Positions 28,611 through 36,182 of a DNA stretch of 64,000 nt are shown here, piece after piece. How positions within the stretch are numbered: position 1 is the first letter of the stretch; every line of letters begins with the position of its first letter. Location: positions 163,587 through 227,586 of the forward strand of contig CAWALA010000005.1 in NCBI GenBank assembly GCA_963782655.1, read 5' to 3'. This DNA is from an uncultured beta proteobacterium (GTDB lineage: Bacteria; Pseudomonadota; Gammaproteobacteria; Burkholderiales; SG8-39). The notes beneath the pieces are model-generated. The model did not search any database and had not been told where the DNA came from. It saw only the letters and a program-made list of their open reading frames with translations. A program made the position numbers and the translations under genes.

Positions 28611-29615
28611 ATGCCTAAGGCGGCCTTCGTCACCGGCGCCACCGGTTTCGTCGGCCTGAACGTGGTCGAAGAACTCCTCGCGCAAGGCTGGCGCGTGATC
28701 GCCCTGCACCGCGCGGATTCGGAATTGAAATACCTGCGGCGCATGGACGCCGAACGGGCCATCGGCGACATCACCGACGCCGATTCCGTGCGGCGTGCCA
28801 TGCCGCAGGGCGTCGACGCCGTGTTCCATGTCGCCGGCGACACGAATCTTTGGTCGAGGCGAAACGCGGCGCAGGACCGGATCAACATCGAGGGCACGCG
28901 GAACGTGGTGGATGCGGCGCTCGAGCGGCGCGCGCGGCGTTTCGTGCACACCTCGAGCATCTCCGCCTACGGCCTGCAGCGGGGGCGGCTCGACGAGGGC
29001 ACGCCGCAGCTCGGCAAGTACTCCAGCGTGAACTACAACCGCTCGAAGCACGTCGCGGAGGAAGCCGTGCGCGCCGGCATGGCGCGCGGGCTGGATGCCG
29101 TGATCCTCAATCCGGGCGCCATCCTGGGCCCGTACGACACGCGCAATTACGCCCGCCTGGTGATGCTGGTGGCCGCGGGAAAGCTCCCGGGCGTGCCACC
29201 CGGTGCGCTGCCCTTCTGCCACGTGCGCGAAGTGGCCAGGGCGCATGTCGCCGCATTCGAGAAGGGCCGCAAGGGAGAGAACTACCTGCTCGGCGGCACC
29301 GACGCGAGCTTCGTCGCGCTCCTGCGCGAGATCGGCGCCGCGCTGGGCAAGCCGGTGCCGGCCCGGCCGACGCCGGCGTGGGTGCTGCGCCTGCTGGGCG
29401 CTCTGGGCTCGCTGGGCGGCGCCTTGACCGGAACCGAACCCACGCTGACGCCGGAAATGGCGCGGCAGGCCACACGCGAGTTGACCTGCGACTGCTCGAA
29501 GGCGATGCGCGAACTCGGCTACCGCGCCGTGCCGCTGCGCGAAATGGTCGGCGACTGCGTGCGCTGGCTCGCCGCCGAAGGGCTGCTGCCCGGATCCTTG
29601 CGCGCGCGCCGCTAG
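28611..29615 (+). CDS. NAD-dependent epimerase/dehydratase family (extended SDR) oxidoreductase
   Basis: Intact 334 aa. MPKAAFVTGATGFVGLNVVEELLAQGWRVIAL...VFHVAGDT...FVHTSSISAYG...YNRSKHVAEE. Rossmann GxxGxxG and YxxxK motifs. Confidence 0.82.
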   Translation: MPKAAFVTGATGFVGLNVVEELLAQGWRVIALHRADSELKYLRRMDAERAIGDITDADSVRRAMPQGVDAVFHVAGDTNLWSRRNAAQDRINIEGTRNVVDAALERRARRFVHTSSISAYGLQRGRLDEGTPQLGKYSSVNYNRSKHVAEEAVRAGMARGLDAVILNPGAILGPYDTRNYARLVMLVAAGKLPGVPPGALPFCHVREVARAHVAAFEKGRKGENYLLGGTDASFVALLREIGAALGKPVPARPTPAWVLRLLGALGSLGGALTGTEPTLTPEMARQATRELTCDCSKAMRELGYRAVPLREMVGDCVRWLAAEGLLPGSLRARR

Positions 29616-30688
29616 CGACGGATCGTCGTCGTCGTCATCGTCTTCGGGCTCAGCAGGGTCGAGCTCGTAGACGTCGTGGTCACGGGCTGGAACGTGAACG
29701 TCGTGGTGGTGATCGACGGCGCCGACAACGTCGTCGTGGTAGAAGTCGTGCTTAACGTCGTGCTCTGCAAGTTCGAGGCGATGTTGTTCAGCGAGGTGGT
29801 GCCAAGCGACGTCTGGATCGGCGCCGCAGTGACCAGCATGCTCGACGGCACCGGCGCGACTTTGGGCTGGAAGGTTTGCGCAGGGTCGCTGACGAGTAAC
29901 GTCGACACGGCCGTCTTGGAAAGCGTGACGCTCTCAATCCGCAAGCTGTCCGGCGAAATGATCGCCGTAGAGATCTTGATGGGTTCCGGGAGCGGCTTGA
30001 ACTCCGTCGCCGGCAGGTTGGCCACCGGCAGCGCAACGAATGGCTGGCGCACCGCCGGCGCGGTCGCCTCGCCGGCCTTGGCGGGCGCGTCGTCCCGGCG
30101 CGGCGTCGGCAGGGCGATCTCGCCAATCTGGATAGTTCGCTCGATGAACTTCCCTCCAGTGACTCCCTGGACTGCTTCCTTGGTCAACGCAATGTCACCC
30201 AGGCGCGCCTCACCAACATTCAGCTTGACCAGCGTCGGCGCCTGCGGCGCGTCGGCGGTCTTCGGCAGCGTCTTGACTTCGATGTCGGCACTGCGCAGGT
30301 CGAACTTGCCGTCCGTCGTGTGCAGCTCCACGGGGCGCAGGCCTGGACGGCCGATCGCCTCGCCGCCGACCAGGCGGATGCGACCCTGGTCGAGAATCAC
30401 CACGTCGCGATCGAGCACGCGCTGGTCGAAGCGTACGCGCGAGCGCTCGCCGATGCCGCACGCGGTGTCCGCGCCGATCTTCACCTGCGCGTAGGAGTCC
30501 GGGCCGGTCTCGAGGCGCAGCCCCGGCGCCAGCCGGGTGCCCTTGGTGACGGGAACTCGCTGGCCCGCCTCGTCGACGCCGAAGCATTGCCCCATGCAGA
30601 AGAGGACGCGGGGCATCTCCTGGGCCGCTACGGGAAACGCGGCGATCGCCAGCAATGCGAGAGGGATCAGTGCGGTGGACTTGCGCAT
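29612..30688 (-). CDS. Secreted FecR-domain protein with Thr/Ser-rich C-terminal tail (paralogue B)
   Basis: ORF 29612..30712. Preferred ATG at 30686-30688 is preceded by TAGGAGG. MRKSTALIPLALLAIAAFPVAAQ signal peptide. FecR-like core (TKGTRLAPGLRLETGPDSYAQVKIGADTACGIGERSRVRF...VILDQGRIRLVGG). Tail ...STTLSTTSTTTTLSAPSITTTTFTFQPVTTTSTSSTLLSPKTMTTTTIRR. Confidence 0.7.
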   Translation of the reverse strand: MRKSTALIPLALLAIAAFPVAAQEMPRVLFCMGQCFGVDEAGQRVPVTKGTRLAPGLRLETGPDSYAQVKIGADTACGIGERSRVRFDQRVLDRDVVILDQGRIRLVGGEAIGRPGLRPVELHTTDGKFDLRSADIEVKTLPKTADAPQAPTLVKLNVGEARLGDIALTKEAVQGVTGGKFIERTIQIGEIALPTPRRDDAPAKAGEATAPAVRQPFVALPVANLPATEFKPLPEPIKISTAIISPDSLRIESVTLSKTAVSTLLVSDPAQTFQPKVAPVPSSMLVTAAPIQTSLGTTSLNNIASNLQSTTLSTTSTTTTLSAPSITTTTFTFQPVTTTSTSSTLLSPKTMTTTTIRR

Positions 30689-30718
30689 GGTAGGCCTCCT
30701 AGTGTCTTTCAATTTGCA

Positions 30719-31975
30719 TCAGCGCTTGATGATGGTGCTGGTGGCTGGCGCCGTCTGAATCGTGGTCGTGGGTGCAGTGAGCACCGGCGACACCGTCGTT
30801 GTCGTCGGTGCCGTCAGAACCGGTGAGATCGTCGTTGTCGGTGCGGTCAGGACCGGCGAAATCGTCGTGGTCGTCGGCGAGATGATCGTCGAGGTCGTCG
30901 GCGCAGTCAGTGTCGGCGAAATCGTCGTGGTCGTCGGCGAGATGATCGTCGAGGTCGTCGGCGCAGTCAGCGTCGGCGAGGCCGTGGTGGTCGCAGGCGA
31001 GATGATGGTCGAGGTCGTAGGCGCAGTCAGCGTCGGCGAGATCGTGGTTGTCGACGGCGAGATGATGGTCGAGGTCGTGGGCGCAGTCAGCGTCGGCGAA
31101 ACCTCCATCACACGGGGTGTGTCGATCGGGTTGAGCAGCGGGGCACCCTGGATTCTGGCGGGCGCCACGGTCTGCACCGGCGACGTTTCCCTCACGGCGG
31201 GCGCTTCCCGAGTGACGGCGGGTGCCGACCGCTTGGCGCCCTCGGCCTTGCCTTCGTCGCCGCGCGCCTGCGGGGTAGCCTGCGGCGCCGGCGTGGGCTT
31301 GCCGAAGATGCCGACGGGCGGCGCGACCAGCACCGGCGGCAAGTTGCTGGGCAGCGCGACGAACACCGTCTGCCCGGGATTGACCACGACCGACGCGCCA
31401 GCGCGGTTCTGGACCGAGATGGTGCCGTCGTAGACACGGTTGTAGGTGCCGGCAGCCGCGTCGGCCACGGGCTGCAGGACGTGAACCACCTCGAAGTGGG
31501 TTCCGCGCACCCCGATCGTCATCGCGCTGGTCGAGACGCGGTAGTTCTGGCGGTTGGTCCGGGCGATCAGGCCGGTGAGCACACGGAAGCCGCCTTTGAT
31601 GATCGACACGGCAAAGCTGCTGTCGCGGTCTTCGGGTGTCGTGAAGCGATAGGAGTCGAGCTTCAGTTGCGTATCGGCCCGCACCGAAACCGCGCCACCG
31701 TCGCTCATCCTGAGCTGGGCCAGGCTGTCCGCGCCCGTGACGATGGAATCGCCTTGCCGGATCTCGCCGTTGCGCACCGCGATGCGAGTGACGCCGTCGC
31801 TGCCGAGAACCTTCACGTCGCCGGTCACCGCGATGAAGCGGCCTGCCGCCGCGTTGCCCTGCGCCGCGACCGGCGTCGCGACGGCGGCCAGCAGTACCGC
31901 CAAGGCGAGCAGCAGGCGCGCGCCGATGGTCACGCCGCTATCCATGGTTTGCGCCCCCGTGCTGCCTGTCGTCAT
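30719..31975 (-). CDS. Secreted FecR-domain protein with tandem Thr-rich 20-aa repeats (paralogue A)
   Basis: ORF 30719..32077. The ATG at 31973-31975 overlaps the stop of the upstream barrel gene (ATGA). Signal peptide GARLLLALAVLLAAVATPVAAQG. FecR domain (FIAVTGDVKVLGSDGVTRIAVRNGEIRQGDSIVTGADSLAQLRMSDGGAVSVRADTQLKL...FAVSIIKGGFRVLTG...MTIGVRGTHFEV). Then a Pro/Ala linker and repeats SPTLTAPTTSTIISPxTTTI, ending TSTIIKR. Confidence 0.75.
   Translation of the reverse strand: MTTGSTGAQTMDSGVTIGARLLLALAVLLAAVATPVAAQGNAAAGRFIAVTGDVKVLGSDGVTRIAVRNGEIRQGDSIVTGADSLAQLRMSDGGAVSVRADTQLKLDSYRFTTPEDRDSSFAVSIIKGGFRVLTGLIARTNRQNYRVSTSAMTIGVRGTHFEVVHVLQPVADAAAGTYNRVYDGTISVQNRAGASVVVNPGQTVFVALPSNLPPVLVAPPVGIFGKPTPAPQATPQARGDEGKAEGAKRSAPAVTREAPAVRETSPVQTVAPARIQGAPLLNPIDTPRVMEVSPTLTAPTTSTIISPSTTTISPTLTAPTTSTIISPATTTASPTLTAPTTSTIISPTTTTISPTLTAPTTSTIISPTTTTISPVLTAPTTTISPVLTAPTTTTVSPVLTAPTTTIQTAPATSTIIKR
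30760..31100 (-). repeat. In-frame 60-bp tandem repeat array (about 4.4 copies plus shorter 27-30 bp relatives) inside FecR paralogue A
   Basis: Sequence lines starting at 30841, 30901, 30961, 31021 and 31081 align with a 60-bp period. 30850-30900 and 30910-30960 are nearly identical (…ggcgaaatcgtcgtggtcgtcggcgagatgatcgtcgaggtcgtcggcgcagtcag). The array encodes SPTLTAPTTSTIISPTTTTI units. Confidence 0.9.
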
Positions 31976-33297
31976 ATGTCGAGCCTCAGGTTCAGCGACA
32001 CGTCGGTACGATCGTACTTGTAGAGGGACTGGTTGCTGTCGTTCTGCATGTACAACACCTGCGGCCGCAGGCTCCATCCCTTCGCGAAGGCCCAGCTGAC
32101 GCCCAGGGTGACGTCGCCCAGAGTATCGACGCGCTCGGTGCCGAACAGCGGGTTCACCTCCGAGTACTCGCCATACAGCACGCCCGCCGACAGAAAGCCG
32201 CCGGTGGTGTTCGAGAAGGTCCGCTGCAAGATGATCCGCAGCCCGACGAATGGCTTGTCGCCATCCACCCGGCCTTCCGTTGCCATCTCTGAGCCCGCCA
32301 GCAGCGTCAACCCGGCAGCGCCGCGGCCGTCCGCGGCGGCATGCAGCCAGCCGAGCGAAGCTTGGGCCATGTCGTAGCTGTTGACGACGAGCGCGGCTGG
32401 AAGGAACTTGTTGCGCGAAGCGCTGAGCCCGAAGGTGATCTGGTCCAGCTTGCCCGCGAGGTAGCGGTAGTCGAGCGTGCCGCCCGCGCTGTCGCGCGCC
32501 TTGGTATCGTCGAGCCAGAAGCGCCCGCCCGTCAGTGCGAACCGCACGTTGTGCGCGCCCTCGCTGTAGCCCAGTCCGGCGCGCAGGTCTACGGTCCCGA
32601 AATCCGCGATTTGGAGGTGACGGTACAGCCGGGCGCGCCCCTCGCCACCTGCGAAGATGGAAACGCGGTCTGTGAGCGCGTGGATCAGTTCGCCGCCTGC
32701 GGTGATAGCGCTGTACTGGTCGCCCCGCGCCAGCGCCGATTGCGGCAGGAGCAGCGTGCCGCCGCCGGCGAGCGTGACCTCGCTGATGCGCGTCGCCGAT
32801 TGCGGGTTGGTGTCGTAGCCGTAGCCGAATTCGAGGTAGCCGAAGCCCACCGTCCTCTTGCCCGCGAGATACTGGTCAGCCGCGCTGCCGTAGATCTGCG
32901 CCTGCTGGCGAAGGTCGGGCGGCAGGTTCTCGAATCGCAGGACCGTTTCGAATTCGAGCTTGGCACGTGCGAAATCGCCCAGCGCTAGGTAGGCCCGTCC
33001 CATCTCGAGCCGCACGCCGACGAAGTTCGGTTCCACCGCCAGGATGCGCTCGTAGATGAAGCTCGCCTTGCTGGGCTGCCCGCTTTCCAGCGCGGAGCGG
33101 GCGAGGAGGTAGTCGAACTTCAGGTCGCCCGCGAGCCTGTCCTCGTGCGGCTCGAGCAGCTTGTACGCCTCGGCATAGCGACCTGCCCGGACCAGGGACT
33201 CCCCTTGCGACACGATCTGGGCGTCGGACTGCGCCCAGGACACGGCGGCAACCGACCAGGCAATCGCGACCAGCAGAACACGGCAGAATGACGCCAA
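31972..33297 (-). CDS. TPR-repeat + DUF560/Slam-like outer-membrane beta-barrel protein (putative type 11 secretion component)
   Basis: Intact 441 aa. Signal peptide MASFCRVLLVAIAWSVAAVSWAQS. TPR region (GRYAEAYKLLEP...LARSALESGQPSKASFIYERILAVEPNFVGVRLEMGRAYLALGDFARAKLEFETVL). Then a barrel with GYGYDTNPQ and terminal strands ERVDTLGDVTLGVSWAFAKGWSLRPQVLYMQNDSNQSLYKYDRTDVSLNLRLDI, which resemble the DUF560 signature as I remember it. Confidence 0.65.
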   Translation of the reverse strand: MASFCRVLLVAIAWSVAAVSWAQSDAQIVSQGESLVRAGRYAEAYKLLEPHEDRLAGDLKFDYLLARSALESGQPSKASFIYERILAVEPNFVGVRLEMGRAYLALGDFARAKLEFETVLRFENLPPDLRQQAQIYGSAADQYLAGKRTVGFGYLEFGYGYDTNPQSATRISEVTLAGGGTLLLPQSALARGDQYSAITAGGELIHALTDRVSIFAGGEGRARLYRHLQIADFGTVDLRAGLGYSEGAHNVRFALTGGRFWLDDTKARDSAGGTLDYRYLAGKLDQITFGLSASRNKFLPAALVVNSYDMAQASLGWLHAAADGRGAAGLTLLAGSEMATEGRVDGDKPFVGLRIILQRTFSNTTGGFLSAGVLYGEYSEVNPLFGTERVDTLGDVTLGVSWAFAKGWSLRPQVLYMQNDSNQSLYKYDRTDVSLNLRLDI

Positions 33298-33507
33298 CTT
33301 CCCCCCTCGAAACAGACTGATACCCCCCCGGGAATGCTAGTTGAGCGTCCTGCGCATTGCAATCGCGCCGGGCCTGTCTGCAGCAGCCAAGGCCCCCCAA
33401 CGTGTAAGACGTTGTCAGGGCCGCAGCGCCGGCCAGCCTGCGTGCCGGGGTACAATCCGCGCGCCGGTCCGAATCAACCACACGGTTCAAATCCAGGGAG
33501 AAGACTG

Positions 33508-34477
33508 ATGCATCCGTTCCGTGCCATTGTTGCCGCCACCACGCTCGCGGCGCTCGCCGGCGCCGCCGGCGCGCAGACCTACCCGAACAAGCCGATCCGC
33601 CTCATCGTGCCCTACGCCGCGGGCGGCACCTCCGACATCCTCGCGCGCCAGATCGGCCCGAAGCTCACCGAGGCCTGGGGCCAGCCGGTGATCGTGGAGA
33701 ACAAGCCCGGCGCCAACGGCAACGTCGGCGCCGATTTCGTCGCCAAGAGCGCGCCCGACGGCTACACGCTGCTGCTCACCGACCTGGGCGGGCTGGTCGA
33801 TCAGCCCCAGCGTCTATCCGCAGCTGCCCTTCGATCCGTCGAAGGACTTCTCCCCGGTGGTGATGGTGTCGTATTCGCCCCACGTGCTGGCGGTGCACCC
33901 GGCGGTCGCGGCGAAGGACGTGAAGGAGCTGATCGCGCTGGCGAAGGCGAACCCGGGCAAGCTCAACTTCGCGGTCTCGGGAATCGGCGGCGCGCCGCAG
34001 CTCGCCGGCATCGAGTTCGCGCAGCGCACCGGCGTGCAATGGACCTACATCCCCTACAAGGGCGGCTCCGACGCGGTGACAGCAGTGGTCGGCGGCCAGG
34101 CCGACGTGCTGTTCAACGGCATGCTCGCGACCTGGCCCTCGGTCACCGGCGGAAGGCTGCGCGCGCTGGCAATTTCCAGCGCGCAGCGCGTGCCTTCGGC
34201 GAAGGACACGCCGACCGTGGCCGAGAACGGCCTGCCGGGGTTCGAGACCGGTTCCTTCCAGGGCGTGGTCGGGCCGGTGGCGATACCCCGCGAGACTGTG
34301 GCGAAGCTCAATGCCGAGCTTGCCAAGGCGCTCAACGCTGCGGACATGAAGGAGCGCTTCGCCAAGCAGGGCACCGAGGTGCGCACCGGCACGCCCGAGA
34401 GCCTCGGCGCCTGGATGACGGCTGAGCAGGCGCGCTGGTCGAAGGTGGTGAAGGAGTCCGGGGTCAAGTTCGAGTGA
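33508..34477 (+). CDS. Bug family (TctC-like) substrate-binding protein; one frame switch near 33800
   Basis: MHPFRAIVAATTLAALAGAAGAQTYPNKPIRLIVPYAAGGTSDILARQ...SAPDGYTLLLTDLGGLV (ORF 33334..34425 frame). Then ISPSVYPQLPFDPSKDFSPVVMVSYSPHVLAVHP...GKLNFAVSGIGGAPQLAG...IPYKGGSDAVTAVVGG (ORF 33857..34477). Confidence 0.88.
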
Positions 34478-35245
34478 AGCTCGAGCTGCCGCAGAACGCG
34501 TTCAAGCGCGCGCTGCAAGGCCGGGCAGCCGCAGATCGGGCTGTGGTCCAGCCTGTCGTCGAACTACTCGGTGGAAGTGATCGCCGGGGCCGGCTTCGAC
34601 TGGATCCTGCTCGACATGGAGCATTCGCCGAACGACCTGGAGAGCCTGCTCGCGCAGCTGCAGGCGGCGGCGCCCTACCCGACCCACCCGGTCGTGCGCG
34701 TGCCGTGGAACGACATGGTGACCATCAAGCGCGTGCTGGACGCGGGCGCGCAGTCGCTGCTGATTCCCTACGTGCAGAACGCGGCGGAAGCGAAGGCGGC
34801 GGTGGCCAACACGCGCTACCCGCCGGCCGGCGTGCGCGGCGTGGCCGGCACCACGCGCGCCACGCGCTTCGGGCGCATCAAGGACTACGCCAAGCGCGCG
34901 CACGAGGAGATCTGCGTGCTGGTGCAGCTCGAGACCAAGCCCGCGCTGGATGAAATCGAGAAGGTGGCGGCGATCGATGGCGTGGACGGCATCTTCATCG
35001 GCCCCGCCGACCTGCACGCCTCGATGGGCTACACCGGCGAGACGGCCAACCCCGCGGTCCTGCCGTTGATCGAAGAATCGATGCGCCGCATCCGCAAGGC
35101 GGGCAAGGCGCCGGGCTACCTTTCGCCGGTGGAGGCGGACGCGAAGCGGATGCTCGCGGCCGGCGCGCAGTTCGTCGCCGTGGGCGCCGACGTCGGCCTG
35201 CTCGCGCGCGGCGCCGAAAACCTGCTGGCAAAATTCAAGGCATGA
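34474..35245 (+). CDS. HpcH/HpaI family aldolase (2-keto-3-deoxy-acid aldolase); one frame switch near 34518
   Basis: GTG at 34474 overlaps the Bug stop. MKLELPQNAFKRALQ then GQPQIGLWSSLSSNYSVEVIAGAGFDWILLDMEHSPNDL...HPVVRVPWNDMVTIKRVLDAGAQSLLIPYVQNAAEA...YPPAGVRG...VLVQLET...IDGVDGIFIGPADLHASMG (ORF 34571..35245). Confidence 0.88.
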
Positions 35246-36182
35246 AACCCGAGATCATCGTCACCACCAAGCTCTTCCCGCGCACCCAGGAGCGGCTCGA
35301 CAAGGAATTCACCTGCCACAAGCTGCACGAGGCCGCCGACCGCGCCGCGTTCCTGAAGGAACTGGCGCCGCGCGTGCGCGCGCTCGCCACCTTCGGCCCG
35401 GCGGGGGCGGACGCGAAGCTGATGGACGCCCTGCCCAAGCTCGAGCTGATCTCGAATTTCGGCGTCGGCGTGGACGCCATCGACCTCGCAGCGGCCAAGC
35501 AGCGCAAGATCATCGTCACCAACACGCCCGACGTGCTGAACGACTGCGTCGCGGACACCGCGATGGCGCTCACCTTGAACGTGATGCGCAAGTTCCCGCA
35601 GTCGGAGGGCTACCTGCGCGCCGGGTTCTGGGCGACGCGCGGCGGCTATCCGCTCACCACGTCGCTCGGCGGCAAGACCATGGGCATCCTCGGCCTGGGG
35701 CGCATCGGCGAGGCGATCGCGCAAGCGCGCGCAGAGTTTCGGCATGAAGATCCGGTACCACAACCGCAAGAAGAAGGACGTCGCCTACCCGTACGACGCG
35801 GACGTGGTGGCACTGGCGAGGAATTCCGACGTGCTGATGGTGGTGACGCCGGGCGGCGCGGAGACCGAGAAGACTGGTCAACGCGAAGGTGCTGGATGCA
35901 CTTGGGCCCGAGGGCTACGTGGTCAACATCGCGCGCGGCTCGGTGATCGACGAGCCGGTGCTGCTCAAGTACCTGCAGGAGAAGAAGATCGCCGGGGCCG
36001 GCCTGGATGTGTTCGCCGACGAGCCGCGCGTGCCGCCCGAGTTCTTCACGCTGGACAACGCGGTGCTGTTCCCGCACGTCGGCAGCGCGACGATGGAGAC
36101 GCGCACGGCCATGGGCAACCTGCAGGTCGACAACCTGCTCGCGCACTTCGCGGGCAAGCCGGTGCTGACGAGGGTCGTCTAG
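35242..36182 (+). CDS. D-isomer-specific 2-hydroxyacid dehydrogenase (glyoxylate/hydroxypyruvate reductase-like); two frame switches near 35735 and 35873
   Basis: MKPEIIVTTKLFPRTQERL...ISNFGVGVDAIDLAAAKQRKIIVTNTPDVLNDCVADTAMALTL...GGKTMGILGLGRIGEAIAQ (ORF 35242..35946). MKIRYHNRKKK...SDVLMVVTPGGAETE (ORF 35744..36196). VVNIARGSVIDEPVLLKYLQEKKIAGAGLDVFADEP...FPHVGSAT (ORF 35889..36182). Confidence 0.88.

Follow-up and report, generated by a model that had tools for sequence, protein, structure and literature searches.

A 64,000-nucleotide stretch of contig CAWALA010000005.1 (the whole of which we call the window) from an uncultured soil Burkholderiales bacterium was analysed. Three tightly packed, co-directional genes lie on its minus strand: g1, encoding a predicted outer-membrane β-barrel protein with a tetratricopeptide repeat (TPR) domain, and g2 and g3, encoding signal-peptide-bearing proteins in which a FecR-like domain is followed by a Thr-rich tail. 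An earlier reading based on the letters alone (the sequence-only reading) had suggested a type 11 secretion system (T11SS) locus with non-canonical cargo. The gene packing, the TAGGAGG ribosome-binding site, the protein motifs and the TSTIIKR and TTTTIRR ends that it described were all found in place, and the computational checks that it suggested all spoke for its interpretation. Our results indicate that the pairing of this barrel with a FecR-domain partner, seen again in about 90 related genomes, probably represents a new cargo class for type 11 secretion. The features of the locus are as follows.

31972..33297, minus strand: g1, 441 amino acids (aa), TTG start (open reading frame and sequence)
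30719..31975, minus strand: g2, 418 aa, or 408 aa with the start at ATG 31945
29612..30688, minus strand: g3, 358 aa, ATG start at 30688
31972-31975, minus strand: ATGA, the TGA stop of g1 overlapping the possible g2 start (sequence)
30695-30701, minus strand: ribosome-binding site TAGGAGG, 6 nucleotides (nt) before the g3 ATG, within the g2-g3 spacer
30758..31101, minus strand: tandem DNA repeats coding for the g2 tail (Tandem Repeats Finder)
g1 protein: signal peptide (about 1-22); periplasmic TPR domain (to about 144); predicted 14-stranded β-barrel (149-440)
g2 protein: signal peptide; FecR-like β-sandwich (43-217); linker VLVAPPxxIFGKPTP; charged Pro/Ala stretch; PLLNPID; Thr-rich repeat tail; C-terminal TSTIIKR
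g3 protein: signal peptide; weak FecR-like domain; linker; Thr/Ser-rich tail; C-terminal TTTTIRR

The g2-g3 spacer is 30 nt long. The ATGA overlap between g1 and g2 is present in the sequence as had been noted, but g2 may really start further downstream. In an alignment of 38 homologues, most begin at a Met matching M11 of g2, so the true start may be ATG 31945, which would replace the 4-nt overlap with a 27-nt gap between g1 and g2. The two genes are tightly coupled under either start. The signal peptides of all three proteins were read from the sequence.

The barrel protein and its family

The g1 protein starts with a signal peptide at about residues 1-22, reading MASFCRVLLVAIAWSVAAVSWA/QS, contains the motif GYGYDTNPQ and ends in LRPQVLYMQNDSNQSLYKYDRTDVSLNLRLDI (last residues SLNLRLDI). 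Pfam searches detected TPR_19 at 6.7e-13, in agreement with the TPR region of the sequence-only reading, and TPR_Slam at 13.2 bits, below its cut-off of 35.2. The match to SlipAM/DUF560 (PF04575), though sub-threshold, covers profile positions 5-284 of 288. An AlphaFold2 model built from 28 sequences (predicted local distance difference test, pLDDT, 83.7) contained TPR helices to residue 144 and then, over residues 149-440, exactly 14 long strands, the number that had been expected for a Slam protein, as against 16 in PgaA, BcsC and PelB. T11SS proteins are reported to have this same topology of TPR domain plus 14-strand barrel.

To place g1 among known families, its relatives were examined. 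Its homologues, hundreds in number, come without exception from Burkholderiales/Betaproteobacteria metagenomes or metagenome-assembled genomes (MAGs), and an exact-protein look-up returned no record of g1 itself. SlipAM was matched at E ≤ 1e-3 by 14 of 28 close relatives (best 4.7e-11). An exhaustive profile search retrieved 4776 cluster representatives at E ≤ 1e-3, of which 808 remained at E ≤ 1e-30 (clusters counted at 50% identity), nearly all of them full-length TPR-plus-barrel proteins of about 440 aa. Among 112 full-length relatives that are 25-45% identical to g1, SlipAM was found in 84 (best 1.5e-16), and other barrel families were found less often (BBP2_2 in 34, OMP_b-brl in 31 and DUF2860 in 20). 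The cut-off of SlipAM was passed by the orthologues of the cultured Sulfuricella sp. T08 (locus NZ_DF967548.1, 46748-60100; 31.6 bits) and of a gammaproteobacterial MAG locus, L057 (27 bits). SlipAM thus dominates across the relatives. By transitive sequence homology g1 falls within the DUF560/SlipAM superfamily as a divergent member, and through the SlipAM matches of its relatives the family is homologous to proven protein translocons. As far as their available parts go, the T11SS surveys report no characterised member of the large environmental clade to which g1 belongs.

Foldseek searches with the g1 model returned BcsC (E 2.7e-13) and PelBC on top (template-modelling, TM, scores about 0.35-0.39), and also FadL, CymA, porins and generic barrels of 14-18 strands, with TM scores of about 0.3-0.45 overall. 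This search did not discriminate between barrel families because the TM scores were low and the library holds no solved Slam structure. Searches of the PDB with the barrel-family sequence profile recovered TPR proteins only, and weak NCBIfam matches of g1 were to BcsC, PrsT and EpsL.

The FecR-domain partners and their pairing with the barrel

The sequence-only reading had assigned a FecR domain to both partners and had described them as paralogues. The domain (PF04773, cut-off 24) was detected in g2, which contains IGVRGTHFEV, at 41.7 bits, and g3 remained sub-threshold at 19.7 bits. BLASTP aligned the two proteins with 29% identity over 155 aa (E 3e-5); on sequence, they are paralogues, albeit distant ones. 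Both signal peptides are of the cleavable type and have no lipobox. No transmembrane anchor, anti-sigma domain, DUF4974/STN-binding domain or Pfam domain other than FecR was found in either protein.

AlphaFold2 modelling of g2 with 38 homologues gave an all-β domain modelled with confidence (residues 43-217); in the tail, pLDDT fell below 50. The C-terminal 190 aa are predicted to be disordered. With Foldseek, the N-terminal domain matched the PupR periplasmic domain (6ovk_R, E 6e-6) and the Bacteroides anti-sigma factor BDI_1681 (4m0n). Its first ~60 residues superpose on 5ix9, the N-terminal "cell surface anchoring domain" of the RTX ice-binding adhesin MpIBP (TM 0.78, root-mean-square deviation 0.7 Å over 61 aa). 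In line with this superposition, the NCBIfam LapA retention-module model NF033682 gave a match, at 26.3 bits, below its cut-off of 50. The nearest NCBIfam models, the Leptospira "surface adhesin Lsa33" and "lipoprotein LipL45", matched the FecR-like region below threshold.

Homologues of the g2 N-domain numbered 116, all of them environmental Burkholderiales proteins of 300-400 aa that are annotated at most as FecR. Their alignment runs from the conserved domain through a near-invariant linker, VLVAPPxxIF(G)KPTPxP, a variable charged stretch and PLLNPIDxP to the Thr-rich repeats. The tails of the family span 73-195 aa, with mean contents of 30% Thr, 14.5% Pro, 9% Ser and 8% Ile. Lys/Arg is the last residue in 83 of 94, mostly within a hydrophobic-hydrophobic-basic-basic ending. 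The DNA of the g2 tail is repetitive, with a 60-nt period in 4.1 copies (91% matches, 30854-31101), the unit of which encodes about SPTLTAPTTSTIISPTTTTI, followed by 33/36-nt units (30758-30874). An exosortase (PEP-CTERM) signal, considered because of the Thr-rich composition and the weak PrsT/EpsL matches, was rejected, as no PEP motif with a transmembrane helix after it occurs in the tails. Cleavage of the LapG type at a conserved AAGRF was also rejected, since this motif lies at the mature N-terminus, ahead of the domain.

We investigated the conservation of the pair in two sets of loci. The close set comprised 24 loci with barrels 47-90% identical to g1, of which the 17 with at least 700 nt of downstream DNA were counted. 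A g2-type gene directly followed the barrel gene in all 17, and a g3-type gene then followed in L001-L004, L006, L007, L010 and L014. The distant set comprised 80 loci with barrels 35-45% identical to g1, found by searching with a 16-sequence subset of the barrel alignment and belonging to Rhodocyclaceae, Gallionellaceae, Sulfuricella, Nitrosomonadales and others. In the 75 loci scored, a gene for a FecR-like N-domain was directly downstream of the barrel in 70 and directly upstream in 3, for a total adjacency of 73/75, and a second, diverged FecR-like paralogue came next in 18 loci. A reciprocal scan with the g2 profile recovered the same pair at gammaproteobacterial loci (Oceanospirillum, Moraxellaceae and Saccharospirillum). 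The pair is therefore almost invariably adjacent in Betaproteobacteria and some Gammaproteobacteria. Of the proposed three-gene arrangement, it is the pair that is conserved throughout, and the third gene, of the g3 type, is conserved in a subset of loci only. Many short FecR-only relatives of about 250 aa occur alone.

All-against-all clustering of the neighbourhood open reading frames revealed no other widely conserved neighbour family. The sole recurrent extra neighbour was a CHASE2-adenylate/guanylate cyclase gene at about ten related loci, which may point to a connection with signalling in some members of the family. The sequence-only reading had stated that the usual FecR partners are absent. 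This held within ~6 kb of the operon for the extracytoplasmic-function (ECF) sigma factor and the TonB-dependent receptor, and in the window for the CHASE2 protein, for which a tblastn search of the 64 kb with the L145 protein found no homologue, but it did not extend to the related loci with a cyclase gene. The cyclase gene stands beside the pair at L143 (2936-5200; the Sulfuricella sp. T08 locus), L145 (2916-5159) and L149 (1601-3865) and also at L172, L136, L132, L139 and L070, and it stands beside barrel-less FecR genes at L062, L063, L065 and L071.

The N-domain of the partners was constant across the loci, and the C-terminal part fell into three types.

Type A: Thr-rich tails of 100-280 aa, the type found in the window
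Type B: passengers of 300 to >1800 aa, ending in ...SGVAAFKR, NGVAAFHR or TGSFVVRR
Type C: short tails, mostly in Gallionellaceae

FecR scored above the cut-off in all ten long partners examined. In type B, the last ~180 aa constitute a conserved domain (alignment A6), for which hhalign showed homology with that at the C-terminus of the gammaproteobacterial partners (95.7%, E 1e-8). The latter domain matched Pfam TbpB_B_D at 19.7-23.2 bits (23.2 at E 1e-4), below the cut-off of 26. In profile searches of the PDB, the best match of A6 was hemophilin, a verified T11SS cargo, at E 0.55; a separate search of this kind gave TbpB at E 0.14. The C-domain of the betaproteobacterial long partners had no Pfam match, either within the full-length proteins or in isolation, and its homologues carry no annotation. 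These matches, which are not significant, suggest that the C-domain of the long partners could be the canonical T11SS targeting barrel. A hydrophobic-basic C-terminus was common to types A and B (27/32 and 28/32 partners). Similar endings are found on the last strands of TbpB and fHbp (...FGAKRQ and ...LAAKQ), a likeness that serves as a lead and not as a test.

Two partner variants stood apart. At L040 (4977-10604; an Oceanospirillum MAG), a partner of >1876 aa with the FecR N-domain combines an acidic linker, rich in Ser/Asp, with three or more tandem copies of a ~230-aa unit that includes the C-terminal domain family (alignment A3). A short partner of about 280 aa, with a tail of about 50 aa ending in Pxx(V/I)F, occurs at L158, L159, L160, L163, L166, L167 and L171. 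These loci are from Gallionellaceae/Nitrosomonadales MAGs and often have a second FecR-like gene about 2.5 kb further downstream.

Candidate secretion of the partners and the alternatives

The 2021 survey of DUF560 proteins defined ten clusters, all of which except cluster 1 are water- or soil-associated and uncharacterised. Characterised cargo is known for cluster 1 only, one of about ten, and all of it shares one C-terminal barrel domain. In the 2025 survey, all predicted cluster 1 cargo had a C-terminal barrel, and the marine cluster 3 co-occurred with DUF1194 instead. Both surveys describe the cargo of the large environmental clusters as an open question. FecR appears in the survey data with 201 co-occurrences, alongside sigma-70 domains, at a false-discovery rate of 0.24 that exceeds the 0.1 cut-off of the paper, and the hemophilin paper treated FecR as an iron-sensing regulator. 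In full-text searches, the hemophilin paper alone combined FecR with DUF560, Slam or type-eleven secretion, and no paper described FecR-domain cargo; in the T11SS papers searched, FecR figures only as a regulatory neighbour.

By its barrel, the locus belongs to a known secretion-system family; the partner class and its domain logic are undescribed. We consider it evenly balanced whether g1 is a translocon of the type 11 secretion (Slam/DUF560) family with g2 and g3 as its dedicated substrates, of an undescribed kind. Like Slam1/2, NilB, HrpB and TepS, g1 depends on Sec, belongs to the outer membrane and combines an N-terminal TPR domain in the periplasm with a predicted 14-stranded PF04575-family barrel, and the genes for the signal-peptide-bearing candidate cargo directly adjoin it. 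When compared with the known cargo (TbpB, fHbp, NilC, hemophilin/HrpC and Pls), g2 and g3 share a non-lipidated signal peptide with hemophilin/HrpC, and long disordered low-complexity regions also occur in Pls. The constant element here, in contrast, is the N-terminal FecR-like domain. The window operon also differs from the cluster 1 type in having no TonB, TonB-dependent receptor or metal-uptake context, and its host belongs to an environmental Burkholderiales lineage known from MAGs only.

Several observations weigh against secretion of the partners by g1. The SlipAM/DUF560 score of g1 itself is 13.7 bits (E 0.047), under the Pfam cut-off of 22, so that the DUF560/Slam-like assignment of the sequence-only reading was borne out by the relatives and not by g1's own score. 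PF04575 is known to match the 16-stranded PgaA too, so a Pfam match alone is no proof of T11SS function. The best Foldseek matches of the barrel were polysaccharide exporters and generic porins with TM scores of about 0.4, the PDB having no Slam structure. Neither g2 nor g3 possesses the C-terminal 8-stranded TbpBBD/lipoprotein-C barrel common to all described T11SS cargo, which agrees with the non-canonical cargo type proposed earlier, and the TbpB/hemophilin likeness of the long-partner C-domain is statistically non-significant. Since known FecR-type domains act in the periplasm, the partners might never cross the outer membrane. Genes for a FecR domain plus a Ser/Thr/Pro tail also occur without a barrel gene within 5 kb at three Burkholderiales loci, L035, L036 and L038, so the pairing is not universal in the wider FecR-tail family. 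These genes (L035 4848-5942, L036 4869-5999 and L038 4875-5963) encode proteins ending in ...APAPR or ...SPPR and are located among fatty-acid and methionine metabolism genes.

If g1 does secrete its partners, g2 and g3 would be exported by Sec and then engaged by the TPR/barrel protein, and the unfolded Thr-rich tail would pass through or along the g1 barrel to the cell surface, C-terminus first. This order is modelled on the canonical T11SS, in which the C-terminal region of the cargo directs export. The FecR-like N-domain would either remain periplasmic, serving for docking or retention, or be exported as well, and the likely end product would be a variable, possibly glycosylated, surface-exposed filament or coat protein of this soil bacterium. 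Export is most likely for the tail, which is predicted to be unfolded, evolves fast and has a conserved C-terminal signature in common with the long-passenger type. The N-domain, by analogy with its nearest structures, may dock in the periplasm. As these structures are periplasmic and the domain is constant beside the barrel, docking to the TPR/barrel protein there, with the tail as a tethered thread, is favoured over export of the domain.

Taken further, this arrangement would be a T11SS with inverted logic, in which the constant FecR-like domain serves as a periplasmic docking or retention plug for the TPR-barrel and the variable C-terminal part is threaded C-terminus first through the DUF560 barrel and held tethered across the outer membrane; in the window this part would be a Thr-rich thread of variable repeat number, possibly glycosylated, with a hydrophobic-basic signal at its end. 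We regard this full model as improbable. It would amount to a Sec-dependent analogue of LapA/LapE anchoring and to a hitherto unrecognised route by which environmental Betaproteobacteria build a coat of surface fibres. The superposition of the start of the g2 domain on 5ix9 and the weak retention-module match are shared with the LapA/MpIBP adhesins, and the proposed topology would be analogous, with an N-terminal domain held in the periplasm and the rest threaded out C-terminus first. LapA-type proteins, however, use a type 1 secretion system with a TolC-like pore, have no signal peptide and are controlled by LapG/LapD, whereas g2 has a Sec signal peptide, an adjoining DUF560 barrel and no RTX repeats; no type 1 secretion genes were found in the neighbourhood of the window operon.

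Two other explanations accept the pairing and place the FecR-like domain differently. The whole partner might be exported and then released or displayed like hemophilin or TbpB, with the FecR-like domain as an extracellular effector that binds a ligand or matrix and the Thr-rich tail as a spacer or targeting region. Canonical T11SS cargo crosses the membrane entire and varies in its N-terminal effector domains, the gammaproteobacterial and many betaproteobacterial partners join the FecR-like N-domain to large passengers and a C-domain weakly like the TbpB/hemophilin barrels, and the sub-threshold Lsa33 match is to a surface adhesin. We nevertheless judge export of the entire protein unlikely, as the constant N-domain and variable C-part reverse the pattern of described cargo and the closest structures of the N-domain are periplasmic docking domains (PupR, an anti-sigma factor) and a periplasmic retention domain. 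Alternatively, no protein might be exported, and the FecR-like proteins would be periplasmic regulators, plugs, envelope-spanning tethers or sensors of the barrel, which would anchor them or transport something else, with the module feeding a CHASE2 cyclase pathway in some relatives. Domains of the FecR/PupR type are located in the periplasm and bind there to the periplasmic domains of outer-membrane proteins, the g2 N-domain matches PupR structurally, and Pro/Thr-rich extended segments could span the periplasm. The CHASE2 cyclase genes beside the pair and beside barrel-less FecR genes point the same way, as does the Burkholderia "BiofilmReg" operon, in which the gene for a periplasmic LysM-FecR protein shares an operon with that for a CHASE2 histidine kinase (PMC5192318). 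That operon resembles the present one in encoding a secreted soluble FecR-domain protein in Burkholderiales, with CHASE2 cyclase genes flanking part of the barrel/FecR clade, but it has neither a DUF560 barrel nor a Thr-rich tail, and the window has no CHASE2 gene, LysM domain or two-component genes. A purely periplasmic role appears doubtful to us: the window operon contains no signalling protein, the genes within ~6 kb encode no signalling domain, the CHASE2 gene is missing at about 90% of related loci, the g1 family is homologous to proven translocons, and fast-evolving tails with variable repeat number typify surface-exposed rather than periplasmic regions.

The remaining explanations fit the locus far less well. 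If g1 were the porin of a synthase-dependent exopolysaccharide pathway of the PgaA, BcsC or PelB type, with the FecR-like proteins as periplasmic accessory factors, its TPR-plus-barrel architecture, its top Foldseek matches and its weak NCBIfam matches would be explained. This role was rejected because of the strand number and because synthase genes are absent, and we consider it very unlikely: 14 strands are predicted and not 16, the TM scores to the exporters are low, the operon and the conserved neighbourhood contain no gene for a glycosyltransferase, a synthase or polysaccharide modification, and SlipAM prevails across the relatives. The Pfam FecR domain of g2 and its structural matches to PupR and the Bacteroides anti-sigma factor could also be taken to mean that g2 and g3 act in cell-surface signalling as classical anti-sigma regulators of the FecR type. 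Domain architecture and neighbourhood contradict this, and it is hardly credible. A cleavable signal peptide runs straight into the FecR-like domain; the cytoplasmic anti-sigma domain, the membrane anchor and the STN-binding C-terminal subdomain of FecR/PupR proteins are all missing, with a Thr-rich tail instead; and no ECF sigma factor or TonB-dependent transducer gene is present within ~6 kb.

The window locus and about 90 related loci offer a testable answer to the cargo question for a large betaproteobacterial clade (the 808 clusters), with a cultured carrier in Sulfuricella sp. T08. The answer proposed here is a secreted partner whose N-terminal domain is FecR-like and whose C-terminal part can be exchanged. 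Should the pair prove to be translocon and substrate, the T11SS would have a wider range of substrates and broader targeting rules than are known, and FecR-domain proteins beside DUF560 genes, which earlier neighbourhood analyses filtered out as regulators, would be read as substrates. If the pair is instead a periplasmic complex, a DUF560 barrel would have a non-secretory role.

Surroundings of the operon and sequence quality

The operon is bordered by a divergent TctC/Bug gene on one side and a convergent epimerase gene on the other. A scan of 29300-33700 detected no sigma-70-like promoter or intrinsic terminator. The neighbours within ~6 kb encode TctC, HpcH aldolase, 2-hydroxyacid dehydrogenase, epimerase, an AraC regulator and acyl-CoA dehydrogenase, and no TonB, TonB-dependent receptor or metal/haem uptake genes were found within ~6 kb. 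FTR1 and hemP genes lie ~4-5 kb from the operon and are not conserved with it. On the near-identical contig L180 (ENA ERZ25039502, 98.8% identical to the window), the FTR1 iron permease and hemP genes are at 435-1701, ~3-4 kb past the upstream neighbours of the barrel gene; they are not kept with the barrel/FecR pair at other loci.

Two plus-strand antisense open reading frames, 30762-31433 (223 aa) and 29676-30494 (272 aa), are Val/Gly-rich and lie over the Thr-rich repeat regions. They were dismissed as artefacts of the repeats and high G+C content, and their apparent conservation elsewhere only mirrors the sense genes.

Comparison with L180 revealed 1-nt insertions in the window at 33799, 34518, 35724 and 35869, which disrupt TctC/Bug (33334-34477) and the gene for 2-hydroxyacid dehydrogenase (35242-36182). 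In L180 neither gene is broken, and the insertions in these flanking genes are probably assembly indel errors rather than marks of pseudogenes. The three operon genes carry no such frame switches, as the sequence-only reading had observed. The g2 linker of L180, for its part, has a 17-nt deficit (L180 7080-7274, corresponding to window 31194-31230) that shifts the frame of g2 there, so that the tail reads as Asp/His-rich (proteins P0121 and P0125). The window frame of g2 gives the family-conserved tail and the IIKR terminus, which indicates that g1, g2 and g3 are intact in the window. Database copies of the g2 family can be mis-translated across the repeat region.

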